Positions 28,214-57,977 are shown, counted from the stretch's first letter. The stretch: DNA of 64,000 nucleotides from an uncultured virus (IMG/VR IMGVR_UViG_3300022555_000012) (IMGVR_UViG_3300022555_000012), one strand, 5' to 3'. Made by a program: numbers and translations. Notes: generated from the letters alone by a model not told the origin.

Positions 28214-28254
28214 TGGCGGGGAAGACAGGAGTCGAACCTGCACCGAACTGTTTA
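28214..28254 (-). pseudogene. 3' half of disrupted tRNA-Arg(CCT)
   Basis: TAAACAGT-TCGGT-GCAGG-TTCGACT-CCTGT-CTTCCCC-GCCA; pairs with the 5' half at 29021-29057. Confidence 0.85.
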
Positions 28255-28256
28255 CT

Positions 28257-28332
28257 TGGTAGGGCTACCCAGAATTGAACTGGGATCATCCGATTAGGAA
28301 TCGGGTACTCTGTCCATTTGAGCTATAGCCCC
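28257..28332 (-). tRNA. tRNA-Arg(CCT), intact replacement copy
   Basis: CCCGA-TTCCTAA-TCGGA; CCA. Confidence 0.92.
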
Positions 28333-28333
28333 A

Positions 28334-28972
28334 TCACTTTAAAAGTTCAAAATTCCCTCTATATTTTTCAACATCAGTTCTCTCTGCATCTCCTATTGGG
28401 TCTCTCAATATCCATATTCTAAGACTGTTCCGCCCGTCAGCCACACTGTGAGGAAGAACATAAACACTGTCATTATCAGCACAATATCCTAAAAAGAAGT
28501 CAACCTCCTCTTTACTGTAAGAATGCCTAACAGCCTTCTTATTTGCTCCTCCCTTTCTGACTGAACAAAATAAGAACTCGTGACATCCACGAGCAACCGG
28601 ATAAATATACTTACATTGACACTTTACAACACTTCCATCTTTTTTCAGAACCAACAAGTCTATCGGAGTGTCCTCCGTCATTGGTTTGAAAACCTTAACT
28701 CCTCCGAACATCAACCTCGCACAAATCATCTGCCTTGCCGCTTCACCGATATCGGTCTTTGACAATCCAGGTCTCTCTTTTGCCACTATCTGTTCTACAA
28801 CCCGACGACCTGGAGCCGAACGCAACACCTTCGACGAATCACACCCTTTAATAATATTCGCCATCGTTGACTTTGATCGTCCATACTTTTTGAGTAACTG
28901 TCCAAGTGTCAGTCCTCTCATTTCTCGATCTTCGACTATCTGCATCCTCACATCTTCTGATATTCTGTTCAT
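28334..28972 (-). CDS. HTH + PD-(D/E)XK homing-type endonuclease
   Basis: GE.....PIDLLV...KCQCK and Y....VDFF motifs; N-terminal HTH. Confidence 0.8.
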   Translation of the reverse strand: MNRISEDVRMQIVEDREMRGLTLGQLLKKYGRSKSTMANIIKGCDSSKVLRSAPGRRVVEQIVAKERPGLSKTDIGEAARQMICARLMFGGVKVFKPMTEDTPIDLLVLKKDGSVVKCQCKYIYPVARGCHEFLFCSVRKGGANKKAVRHSYSKEEVDFFLGYCADNDSVYVLPHSVADGRNSLRIWILRDPIGDAERTDVEKYRGNFELLK

Positions 28973-29020
28973 AAATCATCCTCCGAAAACAGAATATCAA
29001 CTTACTACAAACCAGTCAAC

Positions 29021-29057
29021 TAGGAAACAGCCGCATTGTCCATTGTGCTACATCCCC
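29021..29057 (-). pseudogene. 5' half of disrupted tRNA-Arg(CCT)
   Basis: GGGGATG-TAGCACAATGGACAATGCG-GCTGT-TTCCTA, then non-tRNA sequence. Confidence 0.85.
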
Positions 29058-38813: not shown

Positions 38814-39521
38814 TTACATCTTTCTACGACGAGTTTCTTCCCATTCCTCTCTTTCAAATCCGAATATTTCCTGAATTGCTCCAAGAATTTTCTGTATCAC
38901 ATCTGTTCTAAATACTTTTAAATAACAAACACCATATGGCTTTCTGCCCTTCTTTTTCCCATATCCGTCTTTTCTTATTATATCAATCTGACTTTTACGA
39001 AGAGATGATTCTTCCAATCCTAACACATTCAACCAATCCAGTTTAGCATCATCAAACGTGATCCCGTTTCCCGAGTAGAATTTCAAATGAATGGATATCT
39101 CATCATTTCTAATCTCGAAATATTTCCTGAGAAATCCAATAAAGAATCTCATCATTGCCTTATCTGTGTTACAAAATTCAACAGAATTTGCATTCTTATA
39201 TCCCTCGGCCCAATACAGTGAACATCCCAAAGCAAAGTCACATTCATTCGTCTTTTTATACATTTCTTTCCCCAGGGATTGCCATTCAACCCTTTTCTTT
39301 AAGGCATTCTCACTCCTGGCAACTGACCCTTTCCCTTGGCATCCAACTTTCGGAACACGAGCGTCTAATTCTGCCCTTTGATCCACCGTGAGAATTATAT
39401 CTCTTACCCATACACTAATTGACGCCTTTGAAACTCCGGTAATGCTTACAATCTCTTTTACAGACTTTCCCTCACCACGAAGTCTTCTTGCCTCGGCCTT
39501 TTCTTTTTCTTTCTTTATCAT
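38814..39521 (-). CDS. HTH + LAGLIDADG-like endonuclease
   Basis: N-terminal HTH; GCSLYWAEG helix; EFCNTD. Confidence 0.65.
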   Translation of the reverse strand: MIKKEKEKAEARRLRGEGKSVKEIVSITGVSKASISVWVRDIILTVDQRAELDARVPKVGCQGKGSVARSENALKKRVEWQSLGKEMYKKTNECDFALGCSLYWAEGYKNANSVEFCNTDKAMMRFFIGFLRKYFEIRNDEISIHLKFYSGNGITFDDAKLDWLNVLGLEESSLRKSQIDIIRKDGYGKKKGRKPYGVCYLKVFRTDVIQKILGAIQEIFGFEREEWEETRRRKM

Positions 39522-39581
39522 CCGAACCTCCTTATGTGTTTACCCTACACCTATGGTTCAAATATAAAGAAATTATTGCAT

Positions 39582-39658
39582 TGGCGTCTCCACCGGGGCT
39601 CGAACCCGGAATCTTGACCTTGAGAGGGTCATGTCCTAACCAATTAGACGATGGAGAC
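39582..39658 (-). tRNA. tRNA-Glu(CTC)
   Basis: TGACC-CTCTCAA-GGTCA; CCA. Confidence 0.93.
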
Positions 39659-39666
39659 AAAATAAC

Positions 39667-39734
39667 GAGAGGTACTCTATCCTTTAAGCTATTCCTTCTT
39701 GCGAAGGTTCTGGATTCGAACCAGGCCCCCTCTC
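39667..39734 (-). ncRNA. circularly permuted tRNA-like element A
   Basis: GAGAGG / T-arm CCTGG-TTCGAAT-CCAGA / CCTTC-GCAA-GAAGG / D-arm TAGCTTAAAGGATAGAGTA / CCTCTC. Confidence 0.8.
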
Positions 39735-39736
39735 TG

Positions 39737-39813
39737 TGGTCGGAGAAACAGGATTTGAACCTGCGACCCTTTCGTCCCGAACGAAATGCTCTACCAGTCT
39801 GAGCTATTCTCCG
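39737..39813 (-). tRNA. tRNA-Pro(CGG)
   Basis: TTTCG-TTCGGGA-CGAAA; CCA. Confidence 0.93.
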
Positions 39814-39816
39814 AAT

Positions 39817-40479
39817 TTAAACTACTGCGATACATCCCGCAGCCTTACATGCGAGTGCCATCTTCTCCTCATACTCTTTCTTCTCTCTCGGCTTCACTTC
39901 CCAGGGATATACCTCTGGACTCTCCATCCCCAAACACCCTGAATATGCCTGATAAACATCATCACTATCTACATTCTTTGCCGAAATCCAACCACTAAAT
40001 AAATCCTCATTAATCCTGTATCCCGGCTTATCTCCAAACCACTTAATCGGAACCGCCGGATACTTCAACATCCTCTTGATCTCATCCAAACTCATAAACC
40101 GAATGACCATCCCCGATTCCGAGATCATCCGATTCGCCATGAAGATCGGCTTACCCTTCTTCACACATCTTTCCAGATCCAACTGTTTCAGAGTGAAGAA
40201 ATCAGAATCCTTATCCTTCGTCTTGAATTCCAACTCAATCGTCATCCGGCCAAAGAACATCCTGGCATCACCTGTGATATCCTCGAATCTATCATAAATA
40301 GCGTCATCAGTCTCCCATTCCATTCCACGAAATCCCCTTGCAATCATTCTCCGGCAATTCTGAAACTGATCCAATAACTTCTGTCCCAGAAATCCTTGAA
40401 GCCTGATCCCATTGACAATATCTTCCCGGAACTTATCCTTGGATCTGATATCACGACGATGTTCTTCATTATCACTCAT
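39817..40479 (-). CDS. hypothetical protein (likely start MSDNEEH), possible PD-(D/E)XK fold
   Basis: ORF with GD...ELEFK motif; the longer upstream extension overlaps structured RNA. Confidence 0.55.
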   Translation of the reverse strand: MSDNEEHRRDIRSKDKFREDIVNGIRLQGFLGQKLLDQFQNCRRMIARGFRGMEWETDDAIYDRFEDITGDARMFFGRMTIELEFKTKDKDSDFFTLKQLDLERCVKKGKPIFMANRMISESGMVIRFMSLDEIKRMLKYPAVPIKWFGDKPGYRINEDLFSGWISAKNVDSDDVYQAYSGCLGMESPEVYPWEVKPREKKEYEEKMALACKAAGCIAVV

Positions 40480-40493
40480 ATCTGCCTCAAATA

Positions 40494-40681
40494 GTGTCAA
40501 GTGGGATTTGAACCCACATTCTCCCCTGCCGAACTCGACGTTCATCGGGGACGAGCTATTCCCAATCCTGCCATGCAGGATTTCTTCCCTACACCACTCT
40601 CCGGAACACCGCCCCAGCACCCTGTGGATGCCTTAATTTGGGCTGTCCTCGCCGGTATTCATTCCCGGTTGCTCTATTGAC
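40494..40681 (-). ncRNA. long structured RNA ending in a tRNA T-arm
   Basis: GTGGG-TTCAAAT-CCCAC-TTGAC can pair to GTCAA right after the tRNA-Ala CCA; internal AATCCTGC/GCAGGATT and TCCCC/GGGGA stems. Confidence 0.45.
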
Positions 40682-40756
40682 TGGTGGAGCGTAGGAGACT
40701 TGAACTCCTACTTCCTCGTTGCGAACGAGAGGTGCTACCATTATCACTAACGCCCC
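40682..40756 (-). tRNA. tRNA-Ala(CGC), intact replacement copy
   Basis: TCTCG-TTCGCAA-CGAGG; G3.U70 pair; CCA. Confidence 0.9.
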
Positions 40757-41286
40757 AATCTATTCTTTCTATGTTTCCGGCCATTACCACGATTCAAATT
40801 TCCATATGTCGGTGTAATTGAATGACAACAAGGACATATAAATTCGAGATTTTCAGGTCTATGTCGTTCTGGATTTCCGTCCTTATGATGTGCCGTTAAT
40901 GGAACCCTCCCAGTTACAGGATTTACCATCGACCAATTACATCTTTCTCCACTCGGAAGTATCGCCTCGCAAGTCCCCCCGGATCTTTCAAATAACCATC
41001 TCCGAACGTGTTCTGAAATTATACTACTGTTTCCTCCAGGAATTTCTCCATTCAACCACTTTCGGATAAACTCATCATACTGATATTGCAACTGACAATC
41101 CGTATCACAAAACTTTCGAGAACTCTTTATCGTTATCAATTCACCACAAGAAAGACAATTAATCCTTATTTTACCCGTTCCTTTTCGATTATTGTTATGA
41201 GTTGCCGAACAAACCCTACAACAAAATACTTGGTCCGCTCTCTTAGGACTAAAAGTATCCTTGCAATTCAAACAGATTTTTTCCAT
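40747..41286 (-). CDS. HNH homing endonuclease
   Basis: PLTAHHKDGNPERHRPENLEFICPCCHS; Cys-rich N-terminal repeats. Confidence 0.85.
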   Translation of the reverse strand: MEKICLNCKDTFSPKRADQVFCCRVCSATHNNNRKGTGKIRINCLSCGELITIKSSRKFCDTDCQLQYQYDEFIRKWLNGEIPGGNSSIISEHVRRWLFERSGGTCEAILPSGERCNWSMVNPVTGRVPLTAHHKDGNPERHRPENLEFICPCCHSITPTYGNLNRGNGRKHRKNRLGR

Positions 41287-41347
41287 ATATCCTCCAGCGT
41301 TTCTAAAACTCTACCGCTTTCGAGATTTATGGTCAATGTCTATTTCA

Positions 41348-41381
41348 GAACGTAGTGCTCTACCAAGTGAGCTACTTCCCC
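41348..41381 (-). pseudogene. 5' half of disrupted tRNA-Ala, broken after the first anticodon base (C)
   Basis: GGGGAAG-TAGCTCACTTGGTAGAGCA-CTACG-TTC, then non-tRNA sequence. Confidence 0.82.
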
Positions 41382-41479
41382 AGTAAACAATGCAGGCGAA
41401 GGTTTTTGTATTATTCTGGCTTTAACCTTCACACGCAGGATCAGATCTTTCAACCTGCCAGCACCCCGTGACCTACATT

Positions 41480-41555
41480 TGGTGGAGAAGACCGGGATCG
41501 AACCGGCCACCCTCACAATGCCATTGTGATGCTCTACCAGATGAGCTACTTCCCC
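41480..41555 (-). tRNA. tRNA-Ala(GGC)
   Basis: TCACA-ATGGCAT-TGTGA; G3.U70 pair; CCA. Confidence 0.92.
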
Positions 41556-41896
41556 AAAACCTTATCACCCTTCTTCTGATTACACGGATAACACGCGATC
41601 ACAATGTTCTTCGGGTCCAACTCCGGTCCACCCCTTGACTTCGGGATCACATGATCCAATGTCGCCAACTTCCTCATCTGTGCCTTCGTTGCATCATCGG
41701 GAACCTCTGGAACCAGCCCTGTCGCCTTACAGTAGTAACAAACCAAGTCACCTACCTCTGCCATCGCCTTATTCAGATGAGCCTCCCTGAAGGCTACCCA
41801 GGTCGCTCTCTCTTGTTCCTGGAGTTTCCTCACCAACAATACCCTGGCCGCCATTGAATGAGGATGTGGGTCCTCTACCCTTACTCTGTGTCTCAT
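41546..41896 (-). CDS. small HNH endonuclease
   Basis: CYYC...ATLDHVIPKSRGG....NIVIACYPCNQKKG. Confidence 0.85.
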   Translation of the reverse strand: MRHRVRVEDPHPHSMAARVLLVRKLQEQERATWVAFREAHLNKAMAEVGDLVCYYCKATGLVPEVPDDATKAQMRKLATLDHVIPKSRGGPELDPKNIVIACYPCNQKKGDKVLGK

Positions 41897-41914
41897 TATG
41901 TCCTCTAAAATAAC

Positions 41915-41995
41915 GCCCGACGCTCTTACATTTTCTGAGCTACCCTGCGATTACTTGGTCGCAGAGATAGGATTTTGTACCTATGACCTTCGGAC
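41915..41995 (-). ncRNA. circularly permuted tRNA-like element B (initiator-Met-like halves, internal ACCA)
   Basis: GTCCGA-AGGTC-ATAGG-TACAAAAT-CCTAT-CTCTGCG-ACCA-AGTAAT-CGCAGGG-TAGCTCAG...GAGCG-TCGGGC. Confidence 0.75.
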
Positions 41996-41997
41996 TC

Positions 41998-42073
41998 TGG
42001 TGGAGATTACGGGGATCGAACCCGTCACCCCTAGCTTGCAAAGCTAGTGCTCTACCAAATGAGCTAAACCCCC
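41998..42073 (-). tRNA. tRNA-Ala(TGC)
   Basis: CTAGC-TTTGCAA-GCTAG; CCA. Confidence 0.93.
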
Positions 42074-42378
42074 AAACTATCTACTTCTGCCTTCAAACCT
42101 GCTGCCGTCAACTCACTCACATGCTTCACGGCCTTCTCGTGATCCTCAACCTGGGCAATCGTCTTCCCAGTCTTATGAGCATCCAACGTAATCTTGTCAG
42201 CCATTCCCTCGGAATAACTGAACACTTGCATAAGTGTCTGAACCACATGCTGATAAGTGTTATGATCATCATCAAATAGAATGACCTGACACTGTTCTCC
42301 GGAATCAAAGATTCTGTGATCAAGTAACGGATGAACTTCATCCAATCTTCCGGTTCTCTTTATAACAGTGGTGCTCAT
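42064..42378 (-). CDS. clpS: ATP-dependent Clp protease adaptor ClpS-like
   Basis: VILFDDDHNTYQHVVQTL..VF.....A..IT..AH..G. Confidence 0.85.
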   Translation of the reverse strand: MSTTVIKRTGRLDEVHPLLDHRIFDSGEQCQVILFDDDHNTYQHVVQTLMQVFSYSEGMADKITLDAHKTGKTIAQVEDHEKAVKHVSELTAAGLKAEVDSLGV

Positions 42379-42430
42379 AAAAACATTATACTCCACAAAG
42401 TGTTTGGATTGAAAAAAAGAATTGGAGGAA

Positions 42431-42603
42431 TGAGGAAGAGGCAACGAGATTGCGAGTAAGACTTGGTGTTCTTACCCCCGGAATCTACCCCTCGGCCAAG
42501 GGATCTCCCAGGACTGGGCCGTAGCCCATACATTGACCATCTGTCACCGCACTCTCGAATGCCAATGAGCCTTTTCAGACTCTGCATTCATACTACTTCC
42601 TCA
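42431..42603 (-). ncRNA. candidate structured ncRNA (~170 nt)
   Basis: TGAGGAAG/CTTCCTCA closing stem; GAGAGTGCG/CGCAATCTC inner stem. Confidence 0.4.
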
Positions 42604-42649
42604 ACTAATTCGCGTCAATCACAAAAACTGAGGTTTTTTTTACAGAAAT

Positions 42650-42724
42650 TGGCAGGACGATTGGGAGTCGAACCCAACTCACAGATTTTGGAGATCTGGG
42701 CACCGCCACGTATACCTTCGTCCT
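42650..42724 (-). tRNA. tRNA-Trp(CCA), atypical D-arm
   Basis: CAGAT-CTCCAAA-ATCTG; acceptor AGGACGA/TCGTCCT; CCA. Confidence 0.85.
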
Positions 42725-42763
42725 ATCTATCAGTTTCGTATCAAAAACTATCAAATTGATAAT

Positions 42764-42839
42764 TGGAGCCGGAGGTCGGGGTCGAACCGACGACTTTCTG
42801 ATTACAAATCAGATACTCTGCCAACTGAGTTACACCGGC
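42764..42839 (-). tRNA. tRNA-Thr(TGT)
   Basis: TCTGA-TTTGTAA-TCAGA; CCA. Confidence 0.93.
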
Positions 42840-42980
42840 GAAAATGATGCTTGCCCCAGATATTACTGAGATACTTCAGGGGATTACAAACCTCCTATAC
42901 AGCACATAGATAGTCCGCGAAACCGTCCATGGTCAAATTCAGCCCCCGTAAATCGGGTTCTCCTTATCCTAAACAAGCGT

Positions 42981-43055
42981 TGGCGGGTTGTACGGGAATC
43001 GAACCCGTCTAATCAGATCGACAATCTGACACACTAACCGATGTGCTAACAACCC
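42981..43055 (-). tRNA. tRNA-Asp(GTC)
   Basis: TCAGA-TTGTCGA-TCTGA; CCA. Confidence 0.92.
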
Positions 43056-43058
43056 AAA

Positions 43059-43157
43059 CTACTTCTCAACTGCCCTCAACTTCGCCCAATATCCTTGTCT
43101 CTTTTGAAGTTCTATCCCGTACAACTTGCACCATTTTCTTACAGCATTATCACTTAC
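43059..43157 (-). pseudogene. C-terminal HTH remnant of a homing endonuclease
   Basis: VSDNAVRKWCKLYGIEL...* resembles GVSGNAVKKWIR of the HNH at 44356; no start codon. Confidence 0.6.
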
Positions 43158-43293
43158 CCTTGCAATAAGGACACTCCCAGACCTCTATCGTTCCTTCATT
43201 CTCGACAAATTTGCTTGCCGTATTCGTTGCAAGTGTCCGATTCTCCGGGTCCATTGCGATCACATGATTATTAAAACACAACATCTTATCTCC

Positions 43294-43371
43294 TGGTGTG
43301 CCTGACAAGAATCGAACTTGCAACCCTCAGCTTCGGAGGCTGATACTCTGATCCAATTGAGCTACAGGCAC
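43294..43371 (-). tRNA. tRNA-Arg(CCG)
   Basis: TCAGC-CTCCGAA-GCTGA; CCA. Confidence 0.92.
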
Positions 43372-43654
43372 ATTACTCTACATCTCTCTCATCTATCACA
43401 CTAATCGTTCCATCTGGAGAATTCATGTTCCTCACATACGCCTCATACTCATCAAACCCCTTGTCAATGAACTCATGAACCTCTCTCCTGGCTTCAGCAA
43501 TATCCTGACCTTCGAAAATCCTCAACGGCACCGCTAACATCTGATTCTTGGCCTTCTTCACTAATAAATGAATAAAGCTCGGACTCGTCAACACTTCGGT
43601 ATCCGATTCACATTCATTCACACATATTCCCATCCCGGCAATAATCTTCTTCAT

Positions 43655-43741
43655 TGGCGTTCCCGAGAGGATTTGAACCTCTATTTGCTTTCGCCCTTCA
43701 GATTCGTAGTCTGACATGCTATCCAATTACACCACGGGAAC
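43655..43741 (-). tRNA. tRNA-Arg(ACG) with extended variable arm
   Basis: TCAGA-CTACGAA-TCTGA; variable region AGGGCGAAAGCAAAT; CCA. Confidence 0.87.
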
Positions 43742-43743
43742 AT

Positions 43744-43799
43744 AACCTGCAACCTTCTGATTCGTAGTCAGAAACTCTATCCAATTGAGCTACGGGTAC
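43744..43799 (-). pseudogene. truncated tRNA-Arg(ACG), broken in the T-loop
   Basis: GTACCCG...TCTGA-CTACGAA-TCAGA-AGGTT-GCAGG-TT, then 2 nt and the intact copy. Confidence 0.85.
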
Positions 43800-43933
43800 A
43801 TTATACGCTTTTGGTGAGATTTAATTCTCACATTGAGAGGGATATCGAAAACTCTGGGGATGGGTCCCGATGCCTTGATAGTGCCCTTCTCTTCCGAACT
43901 TCACTCGGCGGTTTATTTTTCCTACAAAAGCTT

Positions 43934-44008
43934 TGGCACTCCCGAACAGAGTCGAACTGTCTTTCCTAGGATGAAAACCTAGTGTCCTAACCGGTAGACG
44001 ACGGGAGT
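43934..44008 (-). tRNA. tRNA-Glu(TTC)
   Basis: CTAGG-TTTTCAT-CCTAG; CCA. Confidence 0.92.
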
Positions 44009-44011
44009 AAA

Positions 44012-44329
44012 TTAACTTGTTGTCGCTGTTATTATCTGCTCAATTTTAAAATTTGGAGAGTGTATCACTCCAATCCTCCATGCCTGCACGTCATTCTCGT
44101 TCTTGGGCACATGCCCATAAAAATCTGTGGCTATATGAAGTCTGGCTGCTTCTGCCGCCTTATTTCCCCACATCTTCCTAACCTCTTCAATGCCCCCTTC
44201 ATGATGGCGAATATCCCTGTGCTTTTCACCAAGCTTTACAAAATATTCATCAAGCCACCTGTGAACCACGGCAAAATCACCACCGAGTTTTTCACGACAT
44301 TCCCTGCAATGCTCTTTATATTCAGCCAT
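44012..44329 (-). CDS. small His-rich hypothetical protein
   Basis: H.......G.....VHRWLD......HR..RHH..G....A.LHI..D pattern. Confidence 0.6.
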   Translation of the reverse strand: MAEYKEHCRECREKLGGDFAVVHRWLDEYFVKLGEKHRDIRHHEGGIEEVRKMWGNKAAEAARLHIATDFYGHVPKNENDVQAWRIGVIHSPNFKIEQIITATTS

Positions 44330-46160: not shown

Positions 46161-46299
46161 TTTTGAGATGCCGAAAACCGCAAAGGGCGTGTTTCTCTGC
46201 TATCCTACCATTAGATGACCGACCCGAAGGCCGGACGGGATTCGAACCCGCATTTTCAGTTTGGAATTGAAGTATCCCTTTGCTGAAGGTATCTCAAAA
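46161..46299 (-). ncRNA. Y RNA (YrlA)-like RNA: long terminal stem carrying permuted tRNA-like domain C
   Basis: GAGATACC-TTCA-GCAAAGGG-ATACTTC [T-arm; CCGGCC-TTCG-GGTCGG; D-arm] CCCTTTGC-GGTTTTC-GGCATCTC. Confidence 0.7.
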
Positions 46300-47532: not shown

Positions 47533-47599
47533 GCCGATGTCCTACCATTAGACGACCGGCCCTTTCGGTCCGGACGGGATTCGAACCCGCATTTTCAGC
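47533..47599 (-). ncRNA. circularly permuted tRNA-like element D
   Basis: GCTGA-AAAT-GCGGG-TTCGAAT-CCCGT-CCGGACC-GAAA-GGGCCGG-TCGTCTAATGGTAGGACA-TCGGC. Confidence 0.8.
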
Positions 47600-51640: not shown

Positions 51641-52468
51641 CTAAAACTCTTTGACGACTTTAACCGCCGCCTCAATCTCTTCCGCCCATTTCCGATCCGC
51701 CAGATACATATCCCTGGGATCGTCCATCTGCCATCCAGGTTCTCGAAGAAACTGAATCCGGGTATATCTCTTAACCGGGAGAGACTTGACGAAATAGTCA
51801 TGCATATTGTCTGATGCTCCATGCAACATCGCCTCAAGCACCCAGATTGCCGTCCCGACTCTCGTCCCCGGTGTCCCGCCCTCGTCCCCTGACTCTGTCC
51901 CGGTCCCAATCGAAAGTATCTCCACATCCTCAATCTTGGCCCCAAGAACCCTCACAGCCGCCGCAAGAGCCACCATACTCGGATTATTGGCATAGATTCC
52001 CCCATCAGCGTATCCCTTCCAAGGTGGGAAATAAGTCTCCGCTGCCGTTGCACAACGACAAATCTCCCAGGCCGGCCATGACCTATCATCAAAATTCGTC
52101 GATGAAAACACCTTCAATGTCTTCTGGCCAATATCGGCCGCCGTAATAAAGACAGGCTTCTTTGCATCCCCCAGCGTTGTTGGCCCAAAAACTGCCCTCA
52201 GAGCATCATTCAGTCCCGTGTCCGAATATTCCGACTGAAGAAGATTCATCTTCCGATACCAGGGTGCATCAAAAACCTTTCCCATCCACTTGTCAAAGAA
52301 ATCAGGAGAAATAATCTCGGGAGTCCCTAATGCCGCCGCTAAAACTTGCGGAGATCCAATCGATGTCCCTGCAAAGGCATCGAACTTGTCAAAACAGTTC
52401 GCCTCCGTCATTATGGAAGACTGTATCCGACCAAATACTCCACCACCATCAAGTGCCAATATTTTCAT
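51641..52468 (-). CDS. patatin-like phospholipase
   Basis: ILALDGGG, GTSIG and ADGGIYANNP motifs. Confidence 0.9.
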   Translation of the reverse strand: MKILALDGGGVFGRIQSSIMTEANCFDKFDAFAGTSIGSPQVLAAALGTPEIISPDFFDKWMGKVFDAPWYRKMNLLQSEYSDTGLNDALRAVFGPTTLGDAKKPVFITAADIGQKTLKVFSSTNFDDRSWPAWEICRCATAAETYFPPWKGYADGGIYANNPSMVALAAAVRVLGAKIEDVEILSIGTGTESGDEGGTPGTRVGTAIWVLEAMLHGASDNMHDYFVKSLPVKRYTRIQFLREPGWQMDDPRDMYLADRKWAEEIEAAVKVVKEF

Positions 52469-53552
52469 TATCTGTCCTCCAGGCTGCATCAATTTGATCC
52501 GCCGATACCCCAAAACACTGTTCAGCCAACTGAGCAGCAATCTGGGCCATCATTACCGGAGGAACACTCATACCTACACAATATACCCTTTTGTTCCTGG
52601 TGACATCAAGAAAATCATAATCATATGGATATGAACCGATTAGACAAATTTCAACCCAACTCAAATTCCTCATCTCTTCCGGGTGTTTCATGTTCTCCGT
52701 CGCCAAGACTGTCGGACTAACCCGCTCATTACTCAACCGGCACCAACTGAAATAACTGCCACCTGAGACTGTCGAATAAGCATCCCCCGGCCGACACCTG
52801 TGCCAATACGCCCGATCCACCGTATTCGCTGTTGTTCCCACCAAATCCTGTATCGGCAACTTGGCTGTAACATCCCTAAACGGGATTGCCGGCTCATTGA
52901 AACTTAAATGAATCGCCGGCAACTTCAAATCTTTTCTCCTGGCTATAAAGAAGACTCTCTCCCGGACCTGTGGAACTCCCATCGACGCCGCATTCAAAAG
53001 AAACAACTGAGGCTCATATCCAAGCGAAACAAACCGATCCATCACTAATTTACAGTAACCCTTCGCCTTCCCAGTCAGCATTCCTTGGACATTCTCTGCC
53101 ACCGCTATCTTCGGCCTTAACTCTCCAACCAAATCAAGATACTCAAAGAACAAGTCAGAAAGAACCTGCTCTGACTGCCCTTCCCTGAACTTCTTATTCT
53201 TTCCCCAGGCTTTCTCACGATCCCCGACCATCGAAAATGTCGAACAAGGCGGACTGCCGTCAAGCACATCCAAGTTATACAACTCCTTGGGTATGTCCTT
53301 CCTGGTCTTAAATGTCTGAATCGGTTCAAGGAAAGCGTGTTTTGGATGATGATTGGCTTGATAGAATGTCATCATCTCCTTATCAATTTCGTTGCATCCC
53401 AACATATCAAAGCCTGCCATCTTGTATCCGAAGGATGATCCTCCTCCACACGCAAAGGTAGAAAAGACAGTATGACCGTGTTTCTTTACTCTCTCCAGGT
53501 CAGTTCTTTTCCAGCAATACGGGAATCTGTGATCTTGAATCATTTTATCCAT
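52449..53552 (-). CDS. DNA (cytosine-5) methyltransferase, paralog 3
   Basis: FACGGG, GSPPC, ENV, Q.RERVFF and GMSVPP motifs. Confidence 0.92.
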   Translation of the reverse strand: MDKMIQDHRFPYCWKRTDLERVKKHGHTVFSTFACGGGSSFGYKMAGFDMLGCNEIDKEMMTFYQANHHPKHAFLEPIQTFKTRKDIPKELYNLDVLDGSPPCSTFSMVGDREKAWGKNKKFREGQSEQVLSDLFFEYLDLVGELRPKIAVAENVQGMLTGKAKGYCKLVMDRFVSLGYEPQLFLLNAASMGVPQVRERVFFIARRKDLKLPAIHLSFNEPAIPFRDVTAKLPIQDLVGTTANTVDRAYWHRCRPGDAYSTVSGGSYFSWCRLSNERVSPTVLATENMKHPEEMRNLSWVEICLIGSYPYDYDFLDVTRNKRVYCVGMSVPPVMMAQIAAQLAEQCFGVSADQIDAAWRTDNENIGT

Positions 53553-54619
53553 GCCTCATCTATCTGTGCTTTTGGCACTCCAAACCATTGTTCGGCAATC
53601 TGAGCCGCAATCTGGGCTGTCATCACCGGAGGAACACTCATGCCGATGCAATATAGCTTAGAATTACGATTCTTACCAAGGAAATCATAGTCGTAAGGAT
53701 ATGCACCGCACATACATGCCTCAACCCAACTAATCCCCCTCATCTCAGTTGGATGAGTATGCTGAGTGCTACTCGTCAATGTGAAGGCCGGCTTGTCTGC
53801 ACTTAATCTCTTGTAATTGAAGAAGTTTCCTCCCGAAGCCTCCTCAAAAGACTGTCCCTGTCTTGTTCTATGCCAGAATGCCCGAACAAATCCTCCCACT
53901 TCTGTCCCTTCCAGATCCTGAATAGGCAAATTATCACATACCTCTCCAAATGAAATCGGTTTTTCGGCGAAGTTGAATTTCAAACTCTTCCACTTCAGAT
54001 CCTTCCTTCGGGCAATGAAGAAAACCCTCTCCCTCGCCTGGGGAACCCCAAGGGATGCCGCATTCATCAAGAACAACTGAACATCATACCCAATATCATC
54101 ATATTTTTGCCGGATTAGGTCACAATATCCCCTTGCCTTTCCGATCAACATTCCCTTCACATTTTCAGCAACAGACACCTTCGGCCTTAACTTGTTCACC
54201 AAATCCAAATAGTCAAAGAACAAGTCTGATAGAACCTGCTCAGCCTGTCCTTCACGGAACTTCTTTTCCTTGCCCCAGGCTTCCTCTCGTGAGCCCGCCA
54301 TAGAGAAAGTAGAGCAGGGAGGACTACCATCAAGCACATCCAGATTAAACAGATCCTGGGGTAAATCAGCCCTATTCTTGAAGGTCTGAATAGGCTCGTG
54401 GTAAATGTGTTTGGGATGATGGTTCGCCAAATACAGTTCAACCATCTCCTTATCTATTTCATTGAATCCTATGACATCGAAGCCTGCCATCTTGTAACCG
54501 AAAGATGATCCTCCTCCACACGCAAAAGTTGAAAAGACGTTGTGACCATGCTTATGAACCCGGTCTAAATCTGTTTTCTTCCAACAGTAAGGAAATCTGT
54601 GATCTTGACTCATTGCCAT
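53540..54619 (-). CDS. DNA (cytosine-5) methyltransferase, paralog 2
   Basis: Same C5-MTase motifs. Confidence 0.92.
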   Translation of the reverse strand: MAMSQDHRFPYCWKKTDLDRVHKHGHNVFSTFACGGGSSFGYKMAGFDVIGFNEIDKEMVELYLANHHPKHIYHEPIQTFKNRADLPQDLFNLDVLDGSPPCSTFSMAGSREEAWGKEKKFREGQAEQVLSDLFFDYLDLVNKLRPKVSVAENVKGMLIGKARGYCDLIRQKYDDIGYDVQLFLMNAASLGVPQARERVFFIARRKDLKWKSLKFNFAEKPISFGEVCDNLPIQDLEGTEVGGFVRAFWHRTRQGQSFEEASGGNFFNYKRLSADKPAFTLTSSTQHTHPTEMRGISWVEACMCGAYPYDYDFLGKNRNSKLYCIGMSVPPVMTAQIAAQIAEQWFGVPKAQIDEAWIK

Positions 54620-55680
54620 GCCTCGTCTATCTGTTCTTTGGGAACCTTAAACCATTGTTCAGCTATTTGTGCTGCCAAATTCGCCGTCATCACCGGGGGA
54701 ACACTCATACCGATACAATACACCTTCTTTTTAGGAGAATGCTCCAGAAAATCATAATCATGAGGATATGATCCAATCATACACACTTCCACCCAACTAA
54801 TCTTTCTCTTCTCTGTCGGATGCGTTAATCCCCAGTTCGTCGTAAGTGTCAATGCCGGCTCATTTGCCGACAATCTCTTATTCCCGAATCCCATGCCTCC
54901 AGATACATCCGAATATGATCCACCCTGTCTCGTCTTCGACCAGAAAACATTCATCAACATCCCGCCCTCTGTCCCGGCAAGATCCTGAAATGGCAGATTA
55001 TCCATCACCGTCTGAAAAGTTATCTGCTTCTCATTACAGTCAATCTTTATATTCGTCCATCCTAAATCTTTTCTCCTGGCTATAAAGAAGACCCTCTCTC
55101 TCCTTTGTGGAACTCCCATTGTTGCCCCATTCACCAGAAACAACTGAACATCATATCCAATCTCGTTATACTTCCTCCGAATGAGGTCACAATAACCCTT
55201 CGCCTTTCCAACCAGAAGCCCTTTAACATTCTCTGCAACAGATACTTTCGGCTTCAACTTGTTCACCAAATCCAAATAGTCAAAGAACAAGTCTGATAGA
55301 ACCTGCTCGGCCTGTCCTTCACGGAACTTCTTATTCTTTCCCCATCCTGATTCGCGTTTTCCAGATGTTGAGAATGTCGAACACGGTGGACTGCCGTCAA
55401 GCACATCCAAATTATACAACTCCTTGGGCAAATCGGGTCTATTCTTGAATGTCTGAATCGCCTCATGATAGGTGTAAATCGGATTGTGGTTTGCCAAGTA
55501 TAACCCCACCATCTCCTTATCTATCTCGTTAAACCCTATGACATTGAAGCCTGACATCTTATAGCCGAAGGATGATCCTCCACCACAAGCAAAAGTTGAA
55601 AAGACAGTATGACCGTGTTTCTTTACCCGAACCAAGTCTGTCTTCTTCCAGCAATAGGGGAATCTGTGATCTTTAACCAC
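54610..55680 (-). CDS. DNA (cytosine-5) methyltransferase, paralog 1
   Basis: Same C5-MTase motifs. Confidence 0.92.
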   Translation of the reverse strand: MVKDHRFPYCWKKTDLVRVKKHGHTVFSTFACGGGSSFGYKMSGFNVIGFNEIDKEMVGLYLANHNPIYTYHEAIQTFKNRPDLPKELYNLDVLDGSPPCSTFSTSGKRESGWGKNKKFREGQAEQVLSDLFFDYLDLVNKLKPKVSVAENVKGLLVGKAKGYCDLIRRKYNEIGYDVQLFLVNGATMGVPQRRERVFFIARRKDLGWTNIKIDCNEKQITFQTVMDNLPFQDLAGTEGGMLMNVFWSKTRQGGSYSDVSGGMGFGNKRLSANEPALTLTTNWGLTHPTEKRKISWVEVCMIGSYPHDYDFLEHSPKKKVYCIGMSVPPVMTANLAAQIAEQWFKVPKEQIDEAWQ

Positions 55681-56266
55681 CCAACCTCTCCAAATCTACC
55701 TGATCGTTTTCGTCAGATGACCAGACAAACCCGCAACACGGGCACTTGGCATCACAATCTTTCACCAAATCAGCGATATCAATCTCCTTGTTGGTGAAAT
55801 TCTTATCCTCTCCTGGGACAAATCTCTTTTCGAGTTTGCTCGTTAAATCATCCATCCTCAATTTACCAAATAAGTCTGCATCAGCCCCCTGAACGGCATG
55901 CAACAACTCCAGAACAGATGGGGTAAAATCACCCTCAATCTCGGGATTATTCAAAGTGAGATTTGCCGACATCTCCTCATTCTCTGGAATATGAGCCACA
56001 ACCATCGGTGCTTCCGTCAATCCCTGGCTAATCAATACCTTGAATCTCTGGTGCCCCCCGACAATGTGTCCCGTTACCTCATTCCAGACAATCGGCTCGA
56101 CATACCCGAATCGATCCAAAGAGGCTTTAAGTCCTCTCATTGCCACATCATCAATGATCCTGGGATTTTCCGGCATCGGAGTCACAGCACCAAACTTAAT
56201 CACTCGAACTTCTATTTCACCGAGATTAGACATTGGATGCTCCATTCCTTTGTACGATTTCCCCAT
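55673..56266 (-). CDS. ParB/Srx N-terminal domain protein with C-terminal CPxC
   Basis: NPR.I...L..S..RFG.VEPIVWN...IVGGHQR. Confidence 0.85.
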   Translation of the reverse strand: MGKSYKGMEHPMSNLGEIEVRVIKFGAVTPMPENPRIIDDVAMRGLKASLDRFGYVEPIVWNEVTGHIVGGHQRFKVLISQGLTEAPMVVAHIPENEEMSANLTLNNPEIEGDFTPSVLELLHAVQGADADLFGKLRMDDLTSKLEKRFVPGEDKNFTNKEIDIADLVKDCDAKCPCCGFVWSSDENDQVDLERLGG

Positions 56267-56786
56267 TCGCCTTCTTCCACACGCTTCGGCATCTTGGACA
56301 TCTCATTCCCTCTTTGGTGCCTTCTGTTCCACCCTTACCCTTGCCACTACCCTTCTTCCCCTCTCCTTCTCCTGGCTGATCAAACTTATACCGTCCAAGA
56401 TAGTTCAACATATCAGCCAGACCGACCGTCTTGAAATCATCGGCCATCGTCTTCTCGGATTCTTGAAGTAACCCAACAACACTCTTCGTGAATGTTCCCC
56501 TGGTAGCCGGATTGTTCATCGTAATATTCAAGGCAACTTCTTCGTTGTCATCCAAATCAACGACTACGACATCTGTCTCCTCGACACCCTTGCTCTGAAG
56601 CACCTTAAACCGCTGGTGTCCCCCTACAATGTTTCCTGAACGCTTGTTCCAAATAATCGGAACCAGAACACCGTAACGATCAATTGAACCACCTAACCCA
56701 TCAATGGCCTCCTGCCGAATTTCCCTTGGGTTATATGCCGCCGGATGTAACTCCGATAATTTCTTCCGTTCCATTATCCAATTCAT
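56226..56786 (-). CDS. ParB/Srx N-terminal domain protein
   Basis: YNPR...PIIWNKRSGNIVGGHQR; CPRC. Confidence 0.85.
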   Translation of the reverse strand: MNWIMERKKLSELHPAAYNPREIRQEAIDGLGGSIDRYGVLVPIIWNKRSGNIVGGHQRFKVLQSKGVEETDVVVVDLDDNEEVALNITMNNPATRGTFTKSVVGLLQESEKTMADDFKTVGLADMLNYLGRYKFDQPGEGEGKKGSGKGKGGTEGTKEGMRCPRCRSVWKKANGEIVQRNGASNV

Positions 56787-57325
56787 GTTTTCCCCTTTAC
56801 GACCAAAATATCTTTACCATCCACCATCCACTTGTTACCGCAACAAGGACATTCCGTATCCCAGTCATCACTCTTCTTTTCACCCTCCATTACCCCGTCT
56901 CCACGATTCTGTTCAATGTTCTTTTCAAGGGATGCCTTCAGCTCATCCATTCGAACGGCCTGGAACAGATCCGGGGCAGAACCCTCGACCTGACTGATCA
57001 ACTCCATGATCGGCTCATCGAACTCTCCCTCGATCTTGACATTGTTCATCGTCAAACTCGCCGCCAACTCATCCTCGGGCGATAAATTGACAACAACCAT
57101 TGGAACTTCCGTTACCCCCTGTTGCATCAATATGGCATATCTCTGATGACCACTGACAATATGCTTCGTCTTCTCGTTCCAAACGATCAACTCCACCAGA
57201 CCGAAACGACCAATAGACGCCTTCAGACCTTTTAAGGCCGACGGAGATATAATCCGGGGATTATTGCTCTGAGGGATTGCGTCACTCAATTTTACAACCC
57301 GTGTTTCCCATTTATTTATGAGCAT
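56783..57325 (-). CDS. ParB/Srx N-terminal domain protein
   Basis: NNPR...IVWN...IVSGHQR; CPCC. Confidence 0.85.
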   Translation of the reverse strand: MLINKWETRVVKLSDAIPQSNNPRIISPSALKGLKASIGRFGLVELIVWNEKTKHIVSGHQRYAILMQQGVTEVPMVVVNLSPEDELAASLTMNNVKIEGEFDEPIMELISQVEGSAPDLFQAVRMDELKASLEKNIEQNRGDGVMEGEKKSDDWDTECPCCGNKWMVDGKDILVVKGKT

Positions 57326-57977
57326 TTTTCTTCCCCTTTAATTGTTTCCCTGTTCCAACCACTGCATTAAAAACGACCTCATTGTCTGTCACCTTCCATT
57401 GACTACTGCACTTGGGGCAACAAATCACCGCCTGGGTCTTCTCTGTGACCTCTGGCGGGTCTTCTTCCCCAGATCCTGCTCCTGGCACGGGTCCCTGTTG
57501 TCCTCCCTCGCCTGGCTCGACCGGGGCCTTCCCCGTAGTCTTTGGCTCTCGCTTCTTCTTGTCGAACCCTCGACCCTTCAGGTAATCATAAAGGTCCAGT
57601 AGTCCGATTTCCCGGAATTTACTCCCGAGTTGGGCTTCAGACATCCGAAGCTGTTCCACAACGTCCTTCGTGAAGTCACCTCGAACTTCCCGATTATTCA
57701 TTGTGATATTCAAGGCAACCTCTTCGTTGTCATCCAGATCAACAACGACGACATCTGTTTCGATCTCCCCCATCTCCAGGAGTTGCTTATATCTCTGATG
57801 CCCACCAACAATGTTTCCTGAACGCTTATTCCAAACGATATGAGACAACATTCCAAATTTGGCAATGGAATTCCCTAAACCCTCAAATGCCTGGTCAGAC
57901 ATCTTCCTGGGATTGTATTCAGCAGGGGTCAACTCATCCAACTTCATCTTCCTGACTTCTACTTTTACTTCACTCAT
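57312..57977 (-). CDS. ParB/Srx N-terminal domain protein
   Basis: YNPR...IVWNKRSGNIVGGHQR; CPKC. Confidence 0.85.
   Translation of the reverse strand: MSEVKVEVRKMKLDELTPAEYNPRKMSDQAFEGLGNSIAKFGMLSHIVWNKRSGNIVGGHQRYKQLLEMGEIETDVVVVDLDDNEEVALNITMNNREVRGDFTKDVVEQLRMSEAQLGSKFREIGLLDLYDYLKGRGFDKKKREPKTTGKAPVEPGEGGQQGPVPGAGSGEEDPPEVTEKTQAVICCPKCSSQWKVTDNEVVFNAVVGTGKQLKGKKNAHK

Follow-up and report, generated by a model that had tools for sequence, protein, structure and literature searches.

A free-standing cassette consisting of a promoter, a gene for an HNH endonuclease and a gene for tRNA-Ala(CGC) has probably entered the anticodon loop of a resident tRNA-Ala gene, the third in the tRNA array of an uncultured phage. 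The cassette lies in a stretch of 64,000 nt (IMGVR_UViG_3300022555_000012; hereinafter the window), where the orphan 5' part of a tRNA-Ala (hereinafter the stub) is followed by the nuclease gene and by an intact but divergent tRNA-Ala(CGC), the presumed cargo. The parts named in the original prediction, namely a tRNA 5' half, the promoter-like TTGACC-N17-TAGAGT, the HNH gene and a tRNA-Ala(CGC) that contains the HNH stop codon, are all present on the minus strand (Table 1). The central claim of that prediction, disruption of an older tRNA-Ala gene by a nuclease cassette that carries a rescue tRNA, gains support from a second cassette in the same array, from the HNH family at large and from an empty site in Pyrinomonadaceae, whereas no empty allele was found at the locus itself.

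Table 1. Features of the HNH cassette and of cassette 1 in the window
Feature	Coordinates	Strand	Evidence or remark
Native tRNA-Ala(GGC), upstream neighbour, closest acceptor-stem relative of the stub	41555-41480	-	
Stub, orphan 5' part of a resident-type tRNA-Ala	41381-41348	-	sequence, nhmmer, 5'-half profile
Stub composition: acceptor strand, D arm, 5' strand of the anticodon stem, T32, T33 (C34)		-	
Stub numbering	G1 = 41381, T33 = 41349, C34 = 41348	-	
Promoter-like TTGACC-N17-TAGAGT, between stub and HNH gene	41336 to 41308	-	9/12 matches
GGAGG, Shine-Dalgarno-like, 4 nt ahead of the ATG	41295-41291	-	read from sequence
HNH endonuclease gene, 179 aa, ATG at 41286	41286-40747	-	ORF, PHROG, motif
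Intact divergent tRNA-Ala(CGC), presumed cargo/rescue tRNA	40756-40682	-	ARAGORN, Rfam
40 nt 3' of the cargo tRNA: cassette tail or strongly altered old 3' half	40681-40642	-	weak candidate
Homologue of the 3' CCA and spacer trailing native tRNA-Ala(GGC)	40641-40614	-	local and global alignment
Cassette 1, old tRNA-Arg(CCT) 5' half, ending TTCCTA	29057-29021	-	
Cassette 1, promoter-like TTGACT-N17-TATTCT, between 5' half and nuclease gene		-	
Cassette 1, PD-(D/E)XK gene	28972-28334	-	Pfam PDDEXK_5, E 7.9e-19
Cassette 1, intact, different tRNA-Arg(CCT)	28332-28257	-	
Cassette 1, old 3' half, four bases after the intact tRNA	28253-28214	-	stem and acceptor pair with the upstream half

The phage and its tRNA array

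The window looks like a part of a very large uncultured phage. Its PHROG matches include phage nucleotide metabolism proteins, ParB-like proteins and methyltransferases, an identical HNH protein is present on contigs of up to 342 kb, and the stretch was found in eight freshwater or lake runs from four studies. Between 26.7 and 47.5 kb, 27 tRNA genes are encoded, all on the minus strand as are nearly all genes of the window; isoacceptors are grouped within this array, and nuclease genes of the HNH, HNH_5, PD-(D/E)XK and DUF559 families (Pfam, PHROG) are interleaved with the tRNA genes.

Several other features of the window deserve mention in their own right. At 52449-57977 (minus strand), a tandem of three paralogous DNA methyltransferase genes precedes a tandem of four ParB-like genes. 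Two tRNA-like elements (46178-46282 and 47533-47599, minus strand) share an identical 29-nt T-arm stretch and give weak matches to YrlA (Y RNA-like) with 34.6 and 25.8 bits, respectively, against a gathering score of 69. An ORF of 220 aa (39817-40479, minus strand), which ends 3 nt before tRNA-Pro(CGG), contains an IELEFK motif that recalls (D/E)xK nucleases; no family was found for it in Pfam, PHROG or NCBIfam, and the only lead is a weak one from the Atlas, to PD-(D/E)XK with a high score carried by 32% of the cluster members.

Organisation of the cassette

The spacer between tRNA-Ala(GGC) and the stub is 98 nt long. Contigs from two runs that belong to different studies bridge the whole arrangement with zero differences (X2, 38852-44329; X3, 40063-43159), which excludes an assembly artefact.

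The HNH ORF is similar to PHROG HNH families (phrog_1271, E 1.3e-17); no Pfam family was detected at E <= 0.01, nothing above the cut-off was found in NCBIfam, and a search of the PDB sequences with the HNH profile yielded only E >= 0.13. The protein contains Cys pairs at its N-terminus and an HH-DGN...N...CPCCH motif, in which the HH-DGN, N146 and CPxC columns do not vary across 11 homologues. The ORF is accordingly predicted, from its sequence, to encode a nuclease domain with an intact catalytic motif. A GIY-YIG domain is absent, as only HNH families match the protein (Pfam, PHROG). No other long ORF of the cassette has database relatives; the further ORFs of at least 30 aa listed between stub and tRNA overlap the HNH gene or the tRNA in other frames. 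The HNH ORF has its own start, a Shine-Dalgarno-like sequence and a promoter-like site, with no surrounding intron family in Rfam. Taken alone, the promoter-like site is at chance level (2 sites found against 2.4 +/- 1.5 expected), but across homologous loci such a site lies within 80 nt upstream of the ATG in 46 of 139 cases, compared with 5 of 139 in-ORF controls.

The stop codon of the HNH ORF, TAG, coincides with nt 8-10 of tRNA-Ala(CGC), so that the two genes overlap by 10 nt. It had been argued that this overlap couples the nuclease to its rescue tRNA; the physical coupling is indeed present but is not specific to nucleases. A ClpS-like ORF and a 116-aa HNH_5 ORF likewise end in a TAG that forms nt 8-10 of the following tRNA, tRNA-Ala(TGC) and tRNA-Ala(GGC), respectively, each with a 10-nt overlap (42064-42073 and 41546-41555, minus strand), and hence the overlap is a general packing feature in this array. 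The bases T8-A9-G10 are near-universal in tRNAs, and the stop overlap may reflect this conservation combined with tight packing. Just upstream of the HNH_5 gene, a D-arm-like stretch (41915-41955, minus strand; GTAGCTCAG...AGAGC), which was matched by no profile, may represent a decayed 5' tRNA stub.

Other scars in the array

Cassette 1 (28214-29057, minus strand) shows the same layout with an unrelated nuclease. Here, an old tRNA-Arg(CCT) gene is split in the anticodon loop, and both halves, which are mutually complementary, are retained around a promoter-like site, a PD-(D/E)XK gene and a complete, different tRNA-Arg(CCT). The best match of the cassette 1 nuclease among the PDB sequences is 2OST (E 0.028), which we take to be I-Ssp6803I. 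The original prediction counted three nuclease families with this layout; the full layout could be confirmed for two, HNH and PD-(D/E)XK, and no cassette corresponding to the second one of that count was found.

Two further loci contain tRNA fragments next to intact tRNA genes. A truncated tRNA-Arg(ACG) (43796-43744, minus strand), which extends up to the 5' strand of the T stem, abuts an intact but divergent tRNA-Arg(ACG) whose variable region is enlarged (within 43655-43796, minus strand); this intact tRNA is followed by a 93-aa ORF of no known family that ends 1 nt before tRNA-Arg(CCG). At 34219-34095 (minus strand), a tRNA-Thr(CGT) with an unusually long variable region is followed, 2 nt on, by an orphan 3' half (34134-34095) with an acceptor strand that differs from that of tRNA-Thr(CGT); its 5' partner was not found. 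Together with cassette 1, the tRNA-Arg(ACG) and tRNA-Thr scars suggest that replacement of tRNA genes by foreign copies is common in the array.

Homologues of the HNH nuclease

In a search with a profile of 11 homologues, 554 of 599 pattern matches from metagenomes and 469 of 600 from species genomes proved to be HNH relatives. The comparative set consists of the 80 best relatives from either source, which are 33-47% identical to the window HNH. tRNA genes are present at 73 of the 80 metagenomic loci and at all 80 genomic loci (153/160), and 454 of the 497 tRNAs at these 160 best loci are encoded on the HNH strand. At 95 of the 160, the next same-strand tRNA starts between -50 and +70 nt from the HNH stop; it overlaps the HNH ORF at 46 loci, by exactly 10 nt at 33 of these. 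Among cultured phages, HNH homologues also occur in tRNA regions, one of them immediately ahead of tRNA-Thr in a T5-like phage. These data demonstrate a family-wide link between this type of HNH gene and tRNA genes.

Matches to a tRNA 5' half were detected within 160 nt upstream of the HNH gene at 15 of 137 loci, compared with 0 on the opposite strand and 0 of 141 within the ORFs. By reading of the sequences, about 10 of the 15 are genuine stubs, ending at T33 and continuing without a gap into the cassette, and the other 5 look like whole tRNAs missed by ARAGORN. In the clear cases, the distance from stub to ATG is 49-60 nt, so that the layout of the window, with about 60 nt that include a promoter-like site, recurs in homologous loci. 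On the other side, 3'-half matches follow the HNH-linked tRNA at 15 of 136 loci, compared with 0 on the opposite strand and 4 of 141 within the ORFs, this being the noisier measure.

A rough tree of 152 proteins, without support values and leaving out the 19 of 160 loci that lack a complete ORF, contains clades that are faithful to a single tRNA partner, namely Thr(CGT), Thr(TGT) or Ala(CGC). The window HNH belongs to a mixed group from phage arrays, outside the clades with stubs and empty sites. Separately, in locus L014 (3650-3915) a tRNA-Thr(GGT)-like gene is split in the anticodon loop by about 190 nt without a long ORF, 70 nt upstream of an HNH homologue.

The relatives with an intact ancestral tRNA at this position, for which the original prediction recommended a search, did not come to light: no nuclease-free allele or ancestor was found among phage records, viral contigs and four runs. 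A blastn search of 39500-42500 against 50,697 phage records returned short matches only, each covering no more than 6% of the query and nearly all falling under annotated tRNA genes. Among viral contigs, the HNH protein had 0 relatives among 21 pattern matches, the pattern of stub and tRNA-Ala(GGC) was found 0 times, and the ClpS-like neighbour gave a single match of 20 residues. Population contigs of the four runs (85% likeness) contain the filled allele only; none of the 15 joints listed of the 38 in these runs, at the same likeness, removes the cassette, and the intact resident tRNA is on no contig of the four. Since no nuclease-free relative of the phage was found, insertion at this locus would follow by analogy with loci where the empty state is available.

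An empty site in Pyrinomonadaceae

Such a locus exists in Pyrinomonadaceae, in which the HNH homologues are 39% identical to the window HNH. In genome G001, the native promoter is followed by a tRNA-Ala(CGC) stub that ends at T33, the HNH gene, an intact variant tRNA-Ala(CGC) and the native downstream flank. None of the 10 relatives that share the upstream gene (70-78% identity) carries the HNH gene, and in 7 of these HNH-free relatives an intact tRNA-Ala(CGC) lies behind the same promoter motif. (The 10 relatives are 11 of 12 fetched loci minus G001, the twelfth, from an unpublished genome, being excluded; the tallies of 70/151 and 25/151 include genomes flagged as unpublished, and the sequence-level claims are independent of both.) Thus, empty-site polymorphism exists for homologues of the window HNH. 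As the right-hand junction in G001 is located within the tRNA or beyond it, no orphan 3' half remains; the window cassette has this right-hand layout too. According to the tree, the Pyrinomonadaceae HNH genes linked to tRNA-Ala(CGC) are not the closest relatives of the window HNH.

The anticodon stems differ between the two states. All 9 HNH-free tRNAs have CCGCG/TGCGG, and the stem is different in all 8 HNH-linked tRNAs: six have CGGCG/TGCCG, in which pair 28:42 is flipped, one has CGACG/TGTCG and one GCGCG/CGCGC. At the level of sequence, these differences fit a change to immunity next to the insertion site, and they may have been inherited jointly as opposed to arising independently. Further close HNH homologues (L182-L186) come in two layouts that mirror each other, stub-HNH-tRNA and tRNA-terminator-HNH-3' remnant. 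A cargo-type anticodon stem is already present in the stub of L182, and the new tRNA at this locus carries yet another variant, a hint of serial invasion.

These homologous loci also bear on an explanation of the window that involves no travelling rescue tRNA, namely that the HNH gene slipped between two tandem tRNA-Ala genes, of which the intact one is the phage's own and the upstream copy later decayed by deletion, leaving the stub. Many HNH relatives do sit between two intact tRNAs, or downstream of one, the array groups isoacceptors, and the 10-nt overlap, being found also at the ClpS-like and HNH_5 ORFs, is no proof that nuclease and tRNA moved together. We nevertheless consider this scenario unlikely: the stub ends in the anticodon loop, at the same point as those of about 10 independent loci and as the empty-site junction; the likeness to native tRNA-Ala resides in the stub and not in the intact tRNA; and cassette 1 keeps both old halves around a complete tRNA.

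Resident and foreign tRNA sequences

The stub is recognised as a tRNA part by two profiles. With a profile of 26 window tRNAs, nhmmer matched 41340-41380 to model positions 2-43 (E 1.5e-5), and in the whole 64-kb window, with tRNAs masked, the stub is the top match of the 5'-half profile (13.1 bits, E 0.009). The tRNA pattern is lost directly after the 34 nt, GGGGAAGTAGCTCACTTGGTAGAGCACTACGTTC. The stub had been read as extending through position 34 = C; C34 is present, but the break may be after T33 or C34, related loci break after T33, and C34 may belong either to the old tRNA or to the insert.

The acceptor strand of the stub, GGGGAAG, is identical to that of tRNA-Ala(GGC), and its D arm, TAGCTCAYYTGGTAGAGCA, is common to the stub and both native tRNA-Ala genes. 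The stub is identical to tRNA-Ala(GGC) at 27 of 34 positions and is at the same distance from tRNA-Ala(TGC), the 7 differences from each native gene being chiefly in the anticodon stem; in raw identity it is as near to tRNA-Pro(CGG) (28 matches) as to the tRNA-Ala genes. The concern that the stub merely copies tRNA-Ala(GGC) is thus not borne out, and its distance from each native gene indicates a third paralogue of the resident family. With the anticodon missing, the alanine/CGC identity of the stub would rest on the acceptor stem and on the grouping of isoacceptors in the array, which makes a resident trio TGC-GGC-CGC the simplest reading; the old tRNA gene, then, presumably carried the anticodon CGC.

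The intact gene is predicted to encode a tRNA-Ala: its cloverleaf scores 52.1 bits in Rfam (gathering score 29), ARAGORN assigns the anticodon cgc, and it has the G3:U70 pair (G3 with T70 in the gene). Its identity to the two native tRNA-Ala genes, 59% and 69%, is below the 74% that these share with each other, its D stem differs from the stub and native type, its anticodon stem is TCTCG/CGAGG as opposed to CTACG in the stub, and it has no blastn match in the 50,697 phage records. These comparisons assign the stub to the resident type and the intact tRNA to a foreign one.

The absence of the old 3' half, which had been reported for this locus, is corroborated: neither the whole-tRNA profile nor the 3'-half profile matched anything near the cassette in nhmmer searches. 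Two candidates were rejected, a T-arm-like piece (40525-40498) that has the wrong acceptor strand, and the 43 nt after the cargo tRNA as a decayed 3' half, for which the best score, 3, is inside the shuffle range. The 40 nt directly after the cargo tRNA (40681-40642) alone show no significant tRNA likeness, and a CCGG...CCGG hairpin is located where the T stem of tRNA-Ala(GGC) would be. The stretch that follows, which starts 40 and ends 68 nt after the cargo tRNA, aligns locally to the sequence trailing tRNA-Ala(GGC) with a score reached by 6 of 2000 shuffles, and a collinear global alignment with the 3' flank of tRNA-Ala(GGC) gives 43 of 74 identical positions, reached by 0 of 3000 shuffles. 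From the alignment to the CCA and spacer of tRNA-Ala(GGC), the return to resident DNA appears to lie behind the cargo by about the length of a tRNA 3' part, probably at 40641-40614. The region 40492-40681 (minus strand) contains a perfect T arm (40525-40498), its ends pair (GTCAA...TTGAC), and ARAGORN reports a tRNA with a 102-nt intron there only when run in intron mode with the threshold lowered; the region may correspond to a tRNA-like RNA or to a tRNA that has been wrecked.

The same comparisons address the suggestion that the stub is a by-product of recombination between tRNA-Ala paralogues, or a partial duplication, that lies next to a nuclease gene by chance in a scarred array. Fragments without a nuclease do occur in the array (tRNA-Arg(ACG) at 43796-43744 and the tRNA-Thr 3' half at 34134-34095), and the acceptor strand shared with tRNA-Ala(GGC) would be accounted for. 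Yet 7 differences in 34 positions from tRNA-Ala(GGC), with equal distance from tRNA-Ala(TGC), argue against a recent copy, the succession of stub, about 60 nt with a promoter-like site and ATG recurs in homologous loci, and the controls there yielded 0 matches; we regard a chance origin of this kind as quite improbable. A working tRNA, in which the stub would be joined to a distant 3' half or would flank a self-splicing intron with the HNH gene, is hardly credible: group I introns with nuclease genes are known in the anticodon loops of bacterial tRNAs, but Rfam detected no intron or ribozyme family in 24000-50000 (E <= 1) or 40440-41480 (E <= 10), no 3' exon was found, and a complete tRNA with the same anticodon lies inside the would-be intron.

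Proposed mechanism and comparison with known systems

Under the favoured scenario of an incoming nuclease cassette, the HNH enzyme would act on a co-infecting genome that lacks the nuclease, cutting or nicking its resident-type tRNA gene close to the anticodon loop, and the cassette would be copied in by repair from the cassette-bearing genome. The resident 5' half would remain as a dead stub and the 3' part would be overwritten or lost, with the native spacer resuming about 40 nt after the cargo tRNA. Decoding by alanine CGC tRNA would be kept by the cargo, which would make the insertion harmless without an intron, and the different anticodon stem of the cargo would probably confer immunity to the nuclease. 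The activity of the HNH protein, its cut site and the immunity of the cargo are presumed here.

The closest known system is SegB of phage T4, described as a free-standing GIY-YIG homing endonuclease in a tRNA gene cluster that recognises the sequence of tRNA genes, which it cuts at the T-psi-C region and the 3' end, and that is passed on during co-infection along with the tRNA genes next to it (PMC2330249). According to the same description, the SegB ORF ends at the start of a tRNA, and tRNA processing between the last codon and the stop codon was proposed to lower expression; SegB is located between intact tRNA genes, and neither a broken-tRNA stub nor a same-anticodon spare is described for it (PMC2330249). 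The window thus resembles SegB in having a selfish nuclease gene in a phage tRNA cluster with an ORF that ends at a tRNA start, but its nuclease is HNH and not GIY-YIG and is accompanied by a stub and a spare tRNA with the same anticodon; by analogy, it would work like SegB without being a member of that system. The tRNA region of phage T5 is described as containing HNH endonucleases, F-TflI, II and IV (PMC2330249), which share with the window the position of an HNH gene within a tRNA cluster. In the T5-like phage HdH2, an HNH protein matches that of the window (tblastn, 38% identity over 68% of the query, E 1e-18), and the last base of its annotated CDS is the first of tRNA-Thr; unlike in the window, the HdH2 annotation contains no broken tRNA.

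Group I introns with nuclease genes occupy anticodon loops of bacterial tRNAs, as in the case of I-Ssp6803I in the cyanobacterial tRNA-fMet. The insertion point is the same, but the window has no ribozyme and no 3' exon, and the old gene is dead, function being provided by a spare gene and not by splicing. Integrase-type islands insert by means of a tyrosine integrase, with duplication of the tRNA 3' part. As with the cassette, a tRNA gene is targeted and restored from the element's own tRNA sequence, with a displaced fragment left; in contrast, the cassette has HNH as its sole gene and carries a whole tRNA, and the displaced piece is a 5' stub. Islands and prophages of this integrase-borne type are described as leaving tRNA gene fragments at tRNA genes (PMC9897764). 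In fractured genes, free-standing nuclease genes are described as splitting protein genes between split inteins (PMC2677866). The common feature is a free-standing homing endonuclease inside an essential gene with function kept, but in the window function would be restored by a replacement copy and not by trans protein splicing. The presence of an HNH gene next to tRNA arrays of bacteria has been reported before. In the literature outside subscription journals and supplements, we found no paper on a nuclease gene that splits a tRNA anticodon loop and supplies a same-anticodon spare.

Implications

In the common view, a homing nuclease can live inside an essential gene only with an intron or intein and is otherwise confined to the space between genes; here, the cost of gene breakage would be paid by a replacement copy. 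We tentatively propose, as a generalisation that may well prove too broad, that at least two unrelated nuclease folds, HNH and PD-(D/E)XK, converged on an intron-free strategy that combines a cut in the anticodon loop with an immune spare tRNA, in genomes ranging from giant lake phages to Patescibacteria, cyanobacteria and Acidobacteriota. Such elements would drive the turnover of tRNA genes in an arms race of flipped anticodon-stem pairs, with new variants invading the cargo tRNA of previous ones. If this is true, it would explain tRNA stubs and divergent, odd tRNAs in phage arrays as well as some partial bacterial tRNA genes, and annotators should then treat such stubs as scars and not as genes. 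It would also provide natural enzyme/target pairs for the study of how the anticodon arm is read, with resident and cargo stems one flipped base pair apart, and would identify a force that shuffles tRNA genes between phages.
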